Positions 242 through 62,277 are shown, counted from the stretch's first letter. The stretch: 64,000 nt of DNA from an uncultured Planctomycetaceae bacterium (GCA_963813715.1 CAWFAK010000008.1:32001-96000), one strand, 5' to 3'. Notes: generated by a model not told the origin, from the letters alone. Program-made: numbers and translations.

Positions 242-1902
242 TGTCCGCGTTGCGCCGGCTGCCTCTGGCCTCGTTCCGTTTGCCGGTGCTGGTCAAGGAT
301 CTGACCGAGCAAGCCGCGCAACGGCGGACCTACATCATTCGCTTCGCCTACGGACTCGTGCTGTTCACGTCGACGGTCGTGCTCTTTTACGCGAATCTCG
401 GCACGGGGGCTTCGGCCCGACAGACGCTCGGCCGCGGGTCTAGCTATTTCGCGATCCTGCTCGCATTCCAGATGATCGCCATGTATCTGGTCATTCCGCT
501 GCTGACGGCCGGGGCGATCGCCGGGGAGCGGCAGCGGGAAACGCTCGTGCTGCTGTTGCTGAGCCCGCTGACGCCGATGCAGATCGTGTTGCAAAAATAC
601 CTGAGCCGGATGGCTCCCGTGCTGACGTTCGTGTTTCTGTCGTTCCCCCTTCTGGCAATCACGTACACGTTTGGGGGCGTGACGGTGGGTCAGCTCTTGT
701 TGGGAATTGCCTTGGTGACGTTTGTGTGCCTCGAGTTGGGGGCGTTCGGCATCATGTGCTCGAGCTGGTCTGCGACGACGGCTCAGGCCCTCGGGGCGAC
801 TTATGTCGGCTCGCTTTTGTTCCCGTGGGTTTGTTCGGGCGTCTGCTGTACGTTTCCCGTGGCCGCACTCTCGGGCTCGACAAACGTTGTCGATCTCGGC
901 GCGCTCACGTCGGCCGGTTTTTGCCTGTTCTCGACGGTCGCCTGCCTCTCGATTGCGGAATTCGTTCTCTCCGCGCGGGCGTCGGCCAGTGCGCCGCGGA
1001 GCGTGCCGCCCCTGTTTCAAAAGATCGATCGCTTCTTCGAGGTGGTCAACGGCGTGGCCGGCGGCATCGTCGTTTGGCGAGACCGCGCCAGCCTGCCCTC
1101 AAGCGAGCCGATCCGCTGGCGCGAGACGCGCAAACGCACCTTCGGCACGCCCCGCTATCTGGCCCGCGTGCTGTTGGCACTCGAGCTGCCCGTAGTGGTT
1201 CTGGTGCCGGCGATCCGCCTCAAAGCGGCTCCTGCCATCCAAGAGCAGGGCCTGGCGATTGTGCTCGCAATCACTTGGGTCAGCGCGGTCCTGCTGGTCG
1301 GCGTATTTGCCGCGAGCATTGTGTCGCAGGAACGCTCGCGACAGACACTCGCCGTGCTGTTGACCGCACCTCTTTCCGGCCGCCAAATCCTGCAGCAAAA
1401 ACTGGCGGGCGTCGACCGCTTGATCCTGGTGCTCTTGGCGCCCTTGGTCAGCTTCATCGGTTTTCAGTTCTGGTGGAAATCGCCCGGGGCCGGTCGCTAT
1501 CTGGTATTGGCGCTGCTGACGCTCATTTATCTGCCGTGTGTGAAATGGCTGGCGACCGGATTCGGGCTCAGGATGCGAACACAACTGATCGCCATCGTGG
1601 TGACGGTCTCGACGCTGGCGATCTGGACGCTGGCACCGCCCCTCGCGCTGGCAGTCCTGGGTCAGTTCCAACTCGACGGGCCTGCCGTGAGAGAATTCGT
1701 CCTGGTGTTGAGTCCCCTCAACGCCGTGGCCGCGATCCAAAAAATGGCGACAAATTCATCCGGTTTGCCTGGCAGGCTGCTCGAACGCGATCGGCCATTT
1801 CTGTGGCACTTCGCCCTTTACGCGGGCCTCTGGTTTCTGCTGCGGCAGTATTGCCTGCGGAACCTCGACCGCCGCCTGGGCCGCGTTCCGCAACCGGGCT
1901 GA
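238..1902 (+). CDS. ABC-2 type transporter permease, internally duplicated
   Basis: Many TM segments; two 'IAGERQRETL..LL.SPL' / 'IVSQERSRQTL..LL.APL' motifs. Confidence 0.8.
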   Translation: MMSALRRLPLASFRLPVLVKDLTEQAAQRRTYIIRFAYGLVLFTSTVVLFYANLGTGASARQTLGRGSSYFAILLAFQMIAMYLVIPLLTAGAIAGERQRETLVLLLLSPLTPMQIVLQKYLSRMAPVLTFVFLSFPLLAITYTFGGVTVGQLLLGIALVTFVCLELGAFGIMCSSWSATTAQALGATYVGSLLFPWVCSGVCCTFPVAALSGSTNVVDLGALTSAGFCLFSTVACLSIAEFVLSARASASAPRSVPPLFQKIDRFFEVVNGVAGGIVVWRDRASLPSSEPIRWRETRKRTFGTPRYLARVLLALELPVVVLVPAIRLKAAPAIQEQGLAIVLAITWVSAVLLVGVFAASIVSQERSRQTLAVLLTAPLSGRQILQQKLAGVDRLILVLLAPLVSFIGFQFWWKSPGAGRYLVLALLTLIYLPCVKWLATGFGLRMRTQLIAIVVTVSTLAIWTLAPPLALAVLGQFQLDGPAVREFVLVLSPLNAVAAIQKMATNSSGLPGRLLERDRPFLWHFALYAGLWFLLRQYCLRNLDRRLGRVPQPG

Positions 1903-1957
1903 CCCCCATCCCCGCCCGAGCCGTTAAAATAGTACTGCCGGTGGGTAGACCGGACGT

Positions 1958-2443
1958 TTGGGCGAATCCTCAACAGCAGGCGGCGAACGCGTGTCGGAAG
2001 GCTTGAACGATCCTCACGATTTGAACCGCTTCCTGCGCGCTCAAGAAAGCGACTATGCGCAGGCGCTTGAAGAAATCCAGTGGGGCCAAAAGCGGTCGCA
2101 CTGGATGTGGTATATCCTCCCGCAGTTCGACGGCCTGGGGCAAAGCTCGACGTCGAAGAAATACTCGATCAAGAGCGTGGCCGAGGCCAAGGCGTACCTC
2201 GCGCATCCCGTTCTTGGTTCGCGGCTCATCGAGTGCTGCGAAGCCGCGCTCAAAATCGAGGGACGATCGGTGCATACAATCTTCGGTTCTCCGGACGATC
2301 TCAAGCTCAAGTCGTGCGCGACGTTGTTTGCCCACATCTCACCGCGCGGATCGGTGTTTGAACTTTTGCTCGACAAGTATTTTGACGGCGATCGTGACCA
2401 AAAGACGTTGCGCCTGATGGGCGCCGCGACTGACGGAGCGTAA
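1958..2443 (+). CDS. DUF1810 family protein
   Basis: DLNRFLRAQ, GQKRSHWMWYILPQ, YLAHPVLGSRL, IFGSPDDLKLKSCATLF motifs; start uncertain. Confidence 0.9.
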   Translation: MGESSTAGGERVSEGLNDPHDLNRFLRAQESDYAQALEEIQWGQKRSHWMWYILPQFDGLGQSSTSKKYSIKSVAEAKAYLAHPVLGSRLIECCEAALKIEGRSVHTIFGSPDDLKLKSCATLFAHISPRGSVFELLLDKYFDGDRDQKTLRLMGAATDGA

Positions 2444-57214: not shown

Positions 57215-57631
57215 ATGACCACACAGGGAACGACGACCACTCAGCGAGTGTTTTCCGCCGCGCCGTGGGAGAAGAAAGTCGGCTACTGCCGGGCGATCAA
57301 GGTCGGCAACCTGATTTTTGTCACCGGCACCGCGGCCGTGGACGACAATGGCAAGACATTCGAGCCGGGGAATGCTTACGGCCAGGCCAAGCGGTGCCTG
57401 TTGTTGATCGAACGGGCCTTGAAAGGGTTGGGGGCCGACCTGTCGTCGGTCGTGCGGACGCGGATGTTCGTGACTGATATTTCGAAGTGGCAGGAGTTCG
57501 GCCGAGCTCACGGCGAAACGTTTCGCGACTTCCCACCGGCGACGACCATGGTCGAGGTCAAGTCGCTGATCGAGCCCGACATGCTGATCGAAATCGAGGC
57601 CGACGCCGTCGTTTCGCGCAACGAAACCTGA
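57215..57631 (+). CDS. RidA/Rid family protein
   Basis: WEKKVGYCRA, VVRTRMFVTDI, PATTMVEV..LI....LIEIEADA. Confidence 0.92.
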   Translation: MTTQGTTTTQRVFSAAPWEKKVGYCRAIKVGNLIFVTGTAAVDDNGKTFEPGNAYGQAKRCLLLIERALKGLGADLSSVVRTRMFVTDISKWQEFGRAHGETFRDFPPATTMVEVKSLIEPDMLIEIEADAVVSRNET

Positions 57632-57648
57632 CCGGAGAGGCGGAGGCG

Positions 57649-58146
57649 ATGGACCTTCTCGATCGGCTCATCGAACACGACATTTGGACGACGCGGCAGC
57701 TCTTGGAGATTTGCCGCGGTCTCACCGACGAACAGCTCGATCGTCCGATCGACATCGGTCCCAAGACCGTGCGGCTCACGCTGCGGCACATCATCTACAA
57801 CATCGAGGCCTGGTCCGACCTGATGGCGGGCCGGCCGATGCGGAAGAATCCGCCGCTCGAGGAGGCGTCGATTTCCGCACTCAGCGACCGCCTCGACGCG
57901 GCGGCCACTGAGTTTACCCGGATCGCGCGGGACGTGGCCGACCGCGGAGCCTGGGACGAGAAATGGCTCAATCGGCGCCACGACCCGCCCAAGCAGCTGT
58001 CTTACGGCGGGACTATCGCTCACGTCATTACGCACAGCATGCACCACCGGGCACAGCTGCTATATATGCTGCGGCTACTGGGTGTTGAAGACCGGCCGGA
58101 GGGCGACGTACTGAGCTGGGAGGAATGGCGGTCGTCCGCGAAATAA
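57649..58146 (+). CDS. DinB family protein
   Basis: GGAGG RBS; HDIWTTRQLL, TLRHII, HVITHSMHHRAQ. Confidence 0.88.
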   Translation: MDLLDRLIEHDIWTTRQLLEICRGLTDEQLDRPIDIGPKTVRLTLRHIIYNIEAWSDLMAGRPMRKNPPLEEASISALSDRLDAAATEFTRIARDVADRGAWDEKWLNRRHDPPKQLSYGGTIAHVITHSMHHRAQLLYMLRLLGVEDRPEGDVLSWEEWRSSAK

Positions 58147-58226
58147 CGGCGCCACAAATAGCCGCACCGATTGGGTGCGTGGAACCGCTGTGCGTGACCT
58201 GCTTCGTGATCTTTCGCGGCAATCAA

Positions 58227-58264
58227 CAAAAAACTCCCGGCGGAAGCTCTCTCCCGCCGGGAGG
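58227..58264 (-). terminator. Intrinsic terminator between convergent genes
   Basis: CTCCCGGCGG...CCGCCGGGAG stem preceded by an A-tract (U-tract on the minus strand). Confidence 0.7.
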
Positions 58265-58284
58265 ATTCGGAACCTGTCGGGCTG

Positions 58285-58731
58285 TTACTTCTGCTTCGCG
58301 CTGCAGCACGCTTTCTTGTCACTGCAGCACTTTTCTCCAGACTGACAACACGCGGACTTCGCGTCGGTTGAGCAGCAGGCCAACTTGGCGTCACAGCAGG
58401 CCAGCTTGGCTTTGCAGCAGTCGGCGACTTGCGCGACGGTCTTCCCCGTCGATTTCATCGCACAACAGCAGCAGGTCTTGGCCGCGGCGGTCGCGACCGT
58501 CCCCTTCAGGCTTGCCGGGTGCGCGGCCATGCAGCAGGCTTTGCCTTCCGCACAGCACTTTGCGCCCTTCTGGCAACAGGCGGGCTTAGTCGCGCTCTGG
58601 CAGCACGGCAAGTTTTGCTGACAACAAGCGAGCTTGGCGGCACAACAATCGAGCGGCTTTTGCTCGGCCGTGACTCCGGGAATCACCAGTCCGAGGCCAA
58701 GGATCGCGCTCACAAACAAATTGACGAGCAT
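58285..58731 (-). CDS. Secreted Cys-rich CC-repeat protein (metallothionein-like)
   Basis: GGAGA RBS, signal peptide, 28 Cys in 148 aa, two modules with identical CC spacing. Confidence 0.8.
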   Translation of the reverse strand: MLVNLFVSAILGLGLVIPGVTAEQKPLDCCAAKLACCQQNLPCCQSATKPACCQKGAKCCAEGKACCMAAHPASLKGTVATAAAKTCCCCAMKSTGKTVAQVADCCKAKLACCDAKLACCSTDAKSACCQSGEKCCSDKKACCSAKQK

Positions 58732-58853
58732 GGGAACTTTCTCCAGAAAAAGAGCGTTGGAAATCCGCTTTCCCTGCGCGAGAACGCGCGCAGTTCAACA
58801 TCCGGTGGACGTCAGGAAGTGCGCCCGGCCAAAACGCCGTCGCACGGAGCGAA

Positions 58854-59282
58854 TCAACAGCGCCAAACGCACTGGAGAAGATGCAAGGGCGGCCCCTCAC
58901 CCATGAGCCAGTCCGACGGAGTGCCGTCGCAGACCGAGGGGAGAACAGGCAGCAGCTCACAGACTGGAATCGGCAGGACCACCGTCGGCGCGACCGACTG
59001 CTGCACGCGCTTGGCTTGCAACGCCGCATCACGCTGACAGCAGCATCGCACGCTCGGCCGACCCGGAACGCCGCCGCAATCAGCCATCTTTCGCACGGTC
59101 CGTCGCTGGCAGCACGACCGCTGGCAACAAGCCCGCTTGGGCTGAGCGGCTTGGTTTTGATCGGAACGGTGCTGATGGGCCTGGGACTGTTCGCCGAAAA
59201 CACTGCTGCAGCACCAGCCGGCCGGCAGAACCATGCCGACGGTGGAAACGAGCAACAGCACTCGAAACAGCCAGAGCTTCAT
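58854..59282 (-). CDS. Cys-rich putative leader protein ending CVWRC
   Basis: TATAAT 9 nt before ATG; signal-like N-terminus; WCC, ACC, SCC, RCCC; terminal GPPLHLLQCVWRC. Confidence 0.7.
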   Translation of the reverse strand: MKLWLFRVLLLVSTVGMVLPAGWCCSSVFGEQSQAHQHRSDQNQAAQPKRACCQRSCCQRRTVRKMADCGGVPGRPSVRCCCQRDAALQAKRVQQSVAPTVVLPIPVCELLPVLPSVCDGTPSDWLMGEGPPLHLLQCVWRC

Positions 59283-59424
59283 ACGCCTGCCATTATACCG
59301 GGCAAAAATGGGCCGGACCACAGATCTTTGCAGTCCGGCCCACCCGCTGTGAATTTTTGAGCGACAAACCGACGCGACAATTCGCCAAGCTCGGCTCTGG
59401 AAGATGCAACGGCCCCGCCACTGA

Positions 59425-61530: not shown

Positions 61531-62277
61531 TCAGCCCGACGTGAGAACGTCCGGCAGCCGGTGGTAAAGCAGCTTAAAGAACACGGTGCCGAGGATTCCG
61601 CCGGGAATGCTCGCCACGTTGGCCAGAAAGTGGCAGAGGATGGCCGGCCAGAGGCTCCGCGTCCGAGCGCGTAGCACCGCGCAACCCCAGCCCGCGAAGA
61701 ACGTGCCCGCGACCAGCGTGCCGCCCCCTTGGATGCCCATGGGCGACCAGATCAGCGGCACATGCATGCCCGCGAAGACCAGGGTCGACGCAACGATCGA
61801 CGGCGCGAACGGCGACCGAGCGGCCGCCTCGTCACGCTCGGCGATCCATGATTGCACGAGCCCGCGGACGTAAATCTCTTCGGAGATGCTGCTCAACATC
61901 CAGATGCACAGCACGAGCTCCAGAAAATTCATCTTCGCTGCCAGCGGGTGCTTCACCCCCAGGAAGATCATCACGACGGTGGCCGACATCATGGCGAGCG
62001 CGGCCACCGAGATCCACGGGGCATAGGATCGGTTCCACCACGGTGCTTTGCGCCAACCCATCTCGCTGAGCTGTCGACCGAGCGCTAGCCACACCACGAG
62101 TGCCACGACGATCATTGTCGTCTTGAGCACGATCTGCGAAATGACGGGCGACGCAGCCCATTCCGGTTTGAGCACCGCTTTCAGCGAGTAGGCGATGCCG
62201 AGGAACAGTAGCAGACCAACCACGAAACCGACGACGGCCCGGACCCAGGGATTCCGCATGGGGTCAGTTTTCTCCAC
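61531..62277 (-). CDS. CPBP (CAAX/Abi) intramembrane metalloprotease
   Basis: EEIYVRG, FAGMH, SLWPAILCHFLAN. Confidence 0.9.
   Translation of the reverse strand: MEKTDPMRNPWVRAVVGFVVGLLLFLGIAYSLKAVLKPEWAASPVISQIVLKTTMIVVALVVWLALGRQLSEMGWRKAPWWNRSYAPWISVAALAMMSATVVMIFLGVKHPLAAKMNFLELVLCIWMLSSISEEIYVRGLVQSWIAERDEAAARSPFAPSIVASTLVFAGMHVPLIWSPMGIQGGGTLVAGTFFAGWGCAVLRARTRSLWPAILCHFLANVASIPGGILGTVFFKLLYHRLPDVLTSG

Follow-up and report, generated by a model that had tools for sequence, protein, structure and literature searches.

A candidate nascent-chain sensor gene preceding a secreted-type poly-cysteine gene in a Planctomycetaceae bacterium

Recent work on CutF and CruR has shown that a nascent chain undergoing export can signal metal levels to the ribosome. 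In SecM, VemP and MifM, the C-terminal 13-17 residues of an exported nascent chain are conserved, and its translation opens a downstream structure that hides a Shine-Dalgarno (SD) sequence; these proteins monitor the export machinery itself, and their arrest has been demonstrated. The three are named as arrest peptides in PMC9973294. For DUF2946 proteins, PMC9426467 describes an export signal, a CXXC motif, an RAPP motif three residues from the end with 45 residues between the two, and a position as first gene in copper-related operons. In CruR (Bp2923) of Bordetella pertussis, copper switches on Rho-dependent termination, and the intergenic region is 162 nt long (PMC9426467). In CutF of Rhodobacter capsulatus (cutFOG), a stem-loop that hides the SD is opened upon stalling at the Pro-rich C-terminus (PMC9973294; bioRxiv 10.1101/2025.02.05.636593). 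The first of these sources also gives the rules for CutF-like proteins: fewer than 150 aa, PP within the last 15 residues, an N-terminal signal peptide and a same-strand neighbour within 1000 nt, in proteins gathered by an iterative sequence search that starts from CutF.

Here we analyse a gene pair in a 64,000-nt stretch of DNA (the window) from an uncultured Planctomycetaceae bacterium (GCA_963813715.1, CAWFAK010000008.1:32001-96000). Our literature search found no paper with CVWRC or CVWLC, nor one that deals with CutF-like proteins together with Planctomycetota. The available supplement text of PMC9973294 has no Planctomycet, Acidobacteri or CVWRC entry; its full protein list may lie outside that text.

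The two-gene unit and the gene 1 family

An earlier note on this DNA had pointed to a TATAAT box 9 nt before an ATG, Cys clusters, a C-terminal motif and a 122-nt gap to a CC-repeat gene. We found all of these elements, and the whole feature is carried by the minus strand (table 1). Gene 1 has 142 codons followed by TGA, and its product reads MKLWLFRVLLLVSTVGMVLPAGWCC...CCQRSCC...CCC...GPPLHLLQCVWRC. On the upstream side, the hairpin at 59341-59304 closes a PQQ-propeller gene (60669-59425) and isolates the two-gene unit. The arrangement is best explained as a self-contained two-gene operon with terminators on both sides, carried by a soil Planctomycetaceae bacterium. A longer GTG start for gene 1 at 59321 is unneeded, because the ATG of the relatives sits 21 codons before the G of GWCC; of the 134 representatives ending in C-x-W-x-C, 75 have this G at residue 22. 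Just beyond the unit's terminator lies a convergent ORF (57487-58146, plus strand) with the look of the DinB family, and the corresponding ORF at locus L011 matches PF05163.

Table 1. Positions of the elements of the two-gene unit, counted from the first letter of the window.
Feature	Coordinates	Strand	Basis or remark
Terminator-like hairpin GGGCCGGAC...GTCCGGCCC with T-run	59304..59341	-	Read from sequence; loop beyond the limit of the terminator scan
TATAAT -10 box	59292..59297	-	9 nt (59291-59283) ahead of the ATG; leaderless or near-leaderless start
Gene 1, 142-aa leader-like protein with Cys motifs, putatively exported	58854..59282	-	ATG 59282-59280; TGA 58856-58854
LPAGWCC motif, residues 19-25, end of the N-terminal hydrophobic helix	59208..59228	-	Alignment of 21 sequences; AlphaFold2
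CCQRSCC motif, residues 52-58, C58 invariant	59109..59129	-	Alignment
CCC motif, residues 80-82, 60 residues from the C-terminus	59037..59045	-	Alignment
Ala/Pro/Val-rich spacer	58896..59036	-	Length kept, sequence unconserved; low pLDDT
Conserved tail GPPLHLLQCVWRC, residues 130-142, flush with the stop	58857..58895	-	Logo of 134 representatives; wobble variation
Predicted anti-SD TTCTCCAG in gene 1 codons about -8 to -5	58872..58879	-	Folding, codon bias, permutation, covariation
Intergenic region, 122 nt, with internal hairpins, e.g. CTGCGCGCG-TTCT-CGCGCAG at 58793-58774	58732..58853	-	
Gene 2 SD region CTGGAGAA, GGAG 58744-58741	58739..58746	-	Predicted to pair with 58879-58872
Gene 2, 148 aa, secreted-type, 28 Cys	58285..58731	-	Two CC modules; no Pfam, NCBIfam or PDB match
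Strong intrinsic terminator, 13-bp stem with T-run, end of the unit	58224..58263	-	Terminator scan

A -10 box that has at least five of six matches and its end 4-11 nt ahead of the ATG is present in 20 of 45 unique relatives but in 1.4% of shuffles; TTGACA/T/C frequently accompanies it at a distance of 17-18 nt. By this measure gene 1 appears to be leaderless in many family members. RNA contigs from three metatranscriptome studies (X11, X16 and X18) span the intergenic region; they end at 59258, 59268 and 59261 on one side and at 58268-58316 on the other, while the contig from a fourth run (X5) reads through. These ends weakly hint that the unit is one transcript beginning near the gene 1 ATG. 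Six soil or rhizosphere RNA libraries (X5, X11, X16 and X18-X20; 108-930 million letters) contained 46-72% of the words sampled from 58200-59400, which for such small libraries means that the unit seems to be common in soil RNA data. Since contigs of soil metatranscriptome RNA contain the unit, it is probably active in soils.

Gene 1 belongs to an unnamed family. A word-based search returned 13 relatives, none with a name, and a profile of 21 sequences run against 1.84 billion representatives gave 866 matches at E ≤ 1e-3, of which 391 reached E ≤ 1e-10. Neither the gene 1 nor the gene 2 protein scored over cut-off when scanned against Pfam and NCBIfam, and a language-model atlas placed gene 1 in unnamed clusters only, with DUF8199 and DUF6769 as weak leads and the nearest named entries. 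As judged by these searches, the family is large and absent from Pfam and NCBIfam. It is single-copy in the source genome and matched at E ≤ 1e-5 in 11 of 401 genomes of the phylum sample, source genome included, and is therefore patchy in the phylum. One family locus, L015 (CAZFGM010000094.1), shows planctomycete-like features and is filed in an Alcaligenaceae bin, possibly through a binning error.

Conservation in the family centres on cysteines and on the C-terminus. The exact C-x-W-x-C-stop ending is found in 134 of 148 relatives among the matches listed, and the logo of these 134 tails reads [P/A/S]-[G/S]-P(109)-[P80/R28]-L(110)-[H/Q/R/N]-[V/I/L]-L(129)-[H/Q/L]-C(134)-V(118)-W(134)-[R86/L46]-C(134)-stop. 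The residues invariant in the 21 aligned sequences are L19, P20, G22, W23 and C24, then C58, C80 and C82, and finally C138, V139, W140 and C142. Wobble positions of the tail vary (TGC/TGT, GTT/GTC/GTG, CGC/CGT) and leave the peptide unchanged; the gene 1 reading frame is therefore the selected one. Stop codons in the family are nonspecific (TAA 27, TGA 24, TAG 4). From this pattern, gene 1 is read as a real conserved protein-coding gene, far beyond chance.

Between the cysteines and the tail, length is conserved and sequence is not. The C-x-C motif stands a median of 60 residues from the C-terminus, with an sd of 1.6 in 103 of 111 representatives, compared with an sd of 7.2 for the linker that precedes it, and 44-52 residues (mode 47-48) separate it from position -12 in 119 of 128 representatives. 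The mean frequency of the top residue is 0.26 in the spacer, 0.74 in the tail and 0.86 in LPxGWCC. In the logo, a Pro-Pro pair lies 11-12 residues from the C-terminal end (residues 131-132 of gene 1); only 83 of the 134 representatives have Pro-Pro within their last 15 residues. AlphaFold2 with the alignment gave gene 1 a pLDDT of 48.8, with helices only at 2-18 and, a short one, at 134-141, and its product is probably largely unstructured. The N-terminus carries K2 and R7 ahead of a hydrophobic stretch (residues 8-21) that overlaps the first of these helices, and shows no clear cleavage site. A CAAX-like C-terminus was considered and rejected, as the cysteines stand at -5 and -1, not at -4.

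Gene 2 encodes a protein with a hydrophobic N-terminus in which 19% of the residues are Cys (28 of 148), nearly all of them paired, in two modules of the form CC-x5-CC-x5-CC-x7-CC-x5-CC-x5-CC. Its relatives keep six invariant CC pairs per module and have one or two modules a protein. We found 11 homologues, none with a name, and a profile search against the PDB gave 0 matches. AlphaFold2 returned a pLDDT of 47.0 and no usable fold, and a role as a chelator is therefore a guess from composition.

The pair itself is conserved. A same-strand Cys-rich ORF with a hydrophobic N-terminus follows gene 1 in 13 of 13 genome loci, which come from MAGs of Planctomycetaceae, Pirellulales, Singulisphaera and others. 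Of 54 metagenome loci, 53 have the motif at the stop and 46 extend at least 300 nt downstream; in 45 of these 46 usable loci an ORF with at least 8 Cys (14-22% Cys) starts no more than 350 nt downstream. The gap between the two genes in the metagenome loci has a median of 115 nt (36-218). The sole exception, L062, carries a 185-aa signal-peptide protein with 4 Cys after 220 nt. Co-orientation with a secreted-type Cys-rich gene is all but obligatory.

Around the pair, the 77 flanking ORFs from 12 loci that were scanned against Pfam proved to be varied genes, with no conserved neighbour and no metal transporter. The thiol-redox genes among them are an AhpC/redoxin gene upstream in L014 and DsbD_N in L019. 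In L008, gene 1 is immediately preceded, on its own strand, by a gene for a CPBP/Rce1-like intramembrane protease (PF02517; 3114-3836). A 248-aa membrane ORF resembling it is found in the window at 61531-62277 (minus strand), approximately 2.2 kb upstream. A RiPP reading of the pair was discarded, as the 12 loci hold no modifying enzymes near it.

Pairing between the gene 1 tail codons and the gene 2 Shine-Dalgarno region

The earlier note had proposed folding the region for occlusion of the gene 2 ribosome-binding site. The result was positive and came with covariation. The Leu-Leu-Gln codons CUUCUCCAG of gene 1 pair with the gene 2 SD CUGGAGAAG (58879-58872 with 58746-58739) both when the seven closest loci are folded by RNAalifold and in the minimum free energy (MFE) fold of the window. 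The helix encloses the intergenic hairpins, and the anti-SD lies about 130 nt from the SD. The window z-score was -2.34.

For the comparison across loci, gene 2 starts were picked by an SD-like word 4-16 nt upstream, and we dropped duplicates as well as any locus that lacked such a start, which left 49-54 unique loci of the 71 examined for the individual tests. Leu(-7) is encoded by CTC in 41 of 51 loci, against 20% of the other gene 1 Leu codons and 15 of 45 at -10, and CTCCA is present in 37 of 54 unique tails. In 41 of 54 unique loci, the 4-nt SD core is predicted at P ≥ 0.5 to pair with the final ten codons. The longest contiguous helix that codons -8 to -5 can form with the 20 nt ahead of the gene 2 ATG averages 7.63 bp over 49 unique loci, reaching at least 6 bp in 40 of them and up to 12. 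Permuting partners across loci lowered this mean to 6.35 bp (sd 0.16), and uniform synonymous recoding to 4.98 bp (sd 0.21); 0 of 200 trials reached 7.63 in either control. The third base of codon -6 (CAG, CAT, CAC or CAA; His/Gln) further covaries with the base two 5' of GGAG (CTGG, ATGG, GTGG or TTGG, respectively). Here, 26 of 30 loci are paired, a result equalled by 1 of 2000 permutations, in a scripted count that by construction excluded 19 loci without CCA or TGGAG. The loci are phylogenetically related, and the helix statistics therefore overstate independence.

Other stretches can rival the tail as partner of the SD: in a duplex scan with 24-nt windows the tail ranked 1st to 53rd of 418-638 windows. 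When wider windows were folded at 14 loci, the tail-SD pairing beat all 25 shuffles in only five, and it was absent in L013, L016 and L019. With the tail masked, the SD was still predicted to be 0.43-0.91 paired, to other partners. Rfam returned no family match.

Compared with these mixed results, the sharper tests across the loci were decisive: codon bias, permutation, synonymous recoding and covariation show, at the level of sequence, a gene 2 SD predicted to be held in a helix with gene 1 codons -8 to -5 that depends on codon choice. The same analyses give good support to a model in which the gene 2 SD would be unmasked by translation.

We also noticed a possible second helix in the close group, in which UGAUCCGCG (58854-58880), made up of the stop codon and the bases that follow it, pairs with CGCGGAUUU (58757-58768), about 20 nt upstream of the SD. 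It shows one compensatory change (alignment columns 26-34 and 116-124), and a terminating ribosome would open it.

Proposed mechanism and alternatives

We propose that gene 1 is a CutF-like nascent-chain sensor of an unrelated sequence family which gates the poly-Cys gene 2, and we see the chances of this reading as even. The gene 1 product would be exported co-translationally and would carry as Cys motifs CC, CCC and, where its signal anchor ends on the outer side, LPxGWCC. On the mRNA, the anti-SD in codons -8 to -5 and the gene 2 SD would form a long-range helix round the structured intergenic region. By the geometry of the ribosome, part of the anti-SD is covered or unwound whenever the P site stands anywhere from Pro(-12) to the stop. 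Because a ribosome there frees the SD in this way, gene 2 could be translated only while the last dozen gene 1 codons are occupied, and its output would scale with the dwell time on the tail. Pro-Pro, followed by C-V-W-x-C at the peptidyl-transferase end, may slow elongation or termination, with the dwell time depending on what becomes of the Cys motifs beyond the membrane. Given the fixed distance of 47-48 residues between CCC and Pro-Pro, and of 60 between CCC and the C-terminus, CCC would reach the translocon's outer opening, next to GWCC, at the moment when the ribosome occupies the anti-SD. A metal, most likely copper, that bridges the thiols would then retain the chain, lengthen the ribosome's stay on the tail and turn on gene 2, whose product is presumed to be a metal sponge for export.

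Translation is known to be slow at Pro-Pro, and the 13-residue tail matches the length of known arrest elements. Selection on C-V-W-x-C acts on the peptide, whose effect must come during or after its own synthesis. We favour the nascent-chain sensor because the tail length, Pro-Pro, C-V-W-x-C and the spacer as a ruler all fit it. Metal sensing, ribosome arrest and metal chelation are what we infer, with copper as a first guess at the signal. More tentatively, and with somewhat less than even confidence, we suggest that the family may form a new, widespread class of leaderless nascent-chain sensors, in which P-P-L-H-x-L-x-C-V-W-x-C-stop would serve as arrest element and anti-SD at once, a 60-residue CCC/GWCC ruler would read periplasmic copper or thiol redox, and the targets would be Sec-exported poly-CC sponges.

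The earlier note had also proposed a test for enrichment upstream of metal-handling genes. No such neighbour is conserved in the 12 loci, and metal-related genes were met only beside remote relatives from the phylum sample, with modest E-values (1e-8 to 8e-6 per genome). Two of these, L028 (G305:C9, 1501-3351) and L030 (G229:C155), share the CC/CCC motifs, have 63 residues after CCC and carry P-L-H/Y-x-L-H at -11 to -6, with the tails PLHILHRMLLV and PLYTLHASLLI. L028 precedes a gene for an HMBD lipoprotein and an OEP outer-membrane efflux gene, and L030 precedes a YHS-domain gene; the tail-SD helix was not seen in the MFE folds of either. A third, L029 (G118:C13, approximately 578-1992, minus strand), ends in HCVWLE and is followed by a short CxC-rich secreted peptide and then by a DUF326 protein with a Tat signal (20.5 bits against a cut-off of 20.4). 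A weaker relative, L031 (G156:C1, 921-1749, minus strand), has the Pro-rich end PPTPPPNVA, precedes a 90-aa secreted Cys-rich peptide and is possibly a bridge between Pro-rich and CVWRC-type tails. The only metal link suggested by these comparisons thus comes from the HMBD/OEP, YHS and DUF326 genes that stand behind remote relatives.

The same relatives bear on the main alternative, somewhat unlikely in our judgement, which is plain translational coupling of two partners. Gene 1 would then be a stable membrane-anchored Cys helper of the poly-Cys protein, for example in metal loading or thiol handling, with no arrest or sensing, and the helix would serve only to have gene 2 made along with gene 1. 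A position before unrelated gene types (HMBD/OEP, YHS) fits a modular sensor better, and a helper accounts less well for a spacer fixed in length and unconserved in sequence, for the lack of a predicted fold and for the way the ORF stops right at the motif, as it does in 134 of 148 relatives among the matches listed. The tail-SD helix is equally expected from coupling, however, and conserved motifs across the whole protein and an almost exclusive pairing are what dedicated partners would show. The invariant C-V-W-x-C, made after Pro-Pro, needs a peptide role, which a helper could also provide.

A redox version of the nascent-chain switch, reading periplasmic thiol-oxidising capacity through a GWCC-CCC disulfide and matching it to the output of a 28-Cys protein, is improbable to us. 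As this version would have it, all the sensing residues are Cys and almost every locus has a Cys-rich protein for export as its target; the AhpC/redoxin and DsbD_N genes also speak for it, but such neighbours occur in only two of 12 loci, and the remote relatives head heavy-metal genes.

That gene 2 encodes an antimicrobial Cys-rich peptide for secretion and gene 1 its immunity protein, a small membrane protein made beforehand, is very improbable: the gene order and the CPBP/Rce1-like gene of L008 would suit it, but a protein with 19% Cys, arranged in regular CC-x5-CC repeats and with no further conserved residue, is unlike known bacteriocins, there are no conserved processing or export genes, and CPBP is adjacent in one of 12 loci. 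That gene 1 is a divergent true DUF2946 (CruR/CutF family) member is scarcely credible, in spite of the same architecture and a similar distance from the Cys motif to Pro-Pro, in view of the profile comparisons given below and of canonical DUF2946 existing separately in the phylum.

The covarying tail-SD helix predicts that synonymous recoding would break control and that compensatory changes would restore it. The family also offers a natural series, with CVWRC tails before poly-Cys genes and PLHxLH-only tails before efflux genes, that could show which part of the tail matters.

Comparison with described systems

The earlier note had suggested a DUF2946-like architecture with a different C-terminal motif, by implication outside DUF2946 itself. 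The PF11162 HMM matched 0 of 118 family members at E ≤ 0.1, and hhalign of the family against six planctomycete DUF2946 proteins gave a probability of 0.65%; because of these two results, gene 1 is assigned by sequence comparison to a family that is not part of DUF2946. CXXC is absent from the family, whose motifs are GWCC, CC, CCC and the terminal C-V-W-x-C, and RAPP is absent near the end, where the tail logo reads G-P-P-L-H-x-L-x-C-V-W-R/L-C. Of 301 genomes sampled from the phylum, 10 carry canonical DUF2946, with CxxC and R-A/G-P-P, above the cut-off (L086-L093), and PF11162 had no match in the source genome (82.6% complete). The likeness in architecture stands as regards a signal-like N-terminus, a Cys motif, a fixed spacer, a C-terminal motif at the stop, the first place in the unit and a structured gap of about 115 nt. 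It does not extend to membership by sequence.

As in DUF2946 and CruR, the distance between the Cys motif and the C-terminal motif is fixed, at 47-48 residues here and 45 there (PMC9426467). CruR also resembles gene 1 in its export signal (a signal-like N-terminus in gene 1), its long intergenic region (162 nt; 122 nt here) and its place as first gene of an operon, but uses CXXC, RAPP and Rho-dependent termination (PMC9426467), whereas gene 1 has neither motif and the evidence points to masking of the SD. A CruR-type termination switch is not favoured here because the intergenic region holds no intrinsic terminator and neither a C-over-G skew nor a C-rich Rho site.

HYC_CC_PP (NF047658) and the Bacteroidota families DUF6769 and DUF8199 show weak, sub-threshold likeness only, in 1 of 118 members each. 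HYC_CC_PP aligned with residues 8-62 of gene 1 at 15.3 bits (14.9 in the genome search; cut-off 28), the one family member being counted at E ≤ 0.1. A literature search on these three families found nothing bearing on function.

Gene 1 shares with the arrest peptides a conserved C-terminal tail and a predicted SD-hiding structure, with arrest only inferred here. To our knowledge, the sequence of its tail is unlike those of SecM, VemP and MifM.

The closest parallel is CutF. With 142 aa, PP at 131-132 and a same-strand neighbour after 122 nt, gene 1 agrees with the length, PP and neighbour rules for CutF-like proteins (PMC9973294), and its N-terminus is signal-like. Both are small Cys proteins with an N-terminal export signal (signal-like in gene 1), Pro-Pro in the terminal region, a next gene on the same strand and an SD-hiding RNA that translation opens or, for gene 1, would open. 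They differ in their cysteines, one CxxxC in CutF (PMC9973294) and CC/CCC plus a terminal CxxxC in gene 1, and in the RNA, a local hairpin in CutF (PMC9973294) and here a predicted anti-SD within gene 1's own codons, approximately 130 nt from the SD. The gene 1 tail, in contrast to CutF, extends ten residues beyond Pro-Pro to C-V-W-x-C-stop, and the gene 1 start is predicted to be leaderless. The targets also differ, a Tat-exported multicopper oxidase for CutF (PMC9973294) and a Sec-type poly-Cys protein for gene 1. If the sensor reading is true, the logic of CutF and CruR would extend to a family outside Pfam and NCBIfam with at least 391 representatives at E ≤ 1e-10, with a different tail motif and with exported poly-cysteine proteins as a new class of target.
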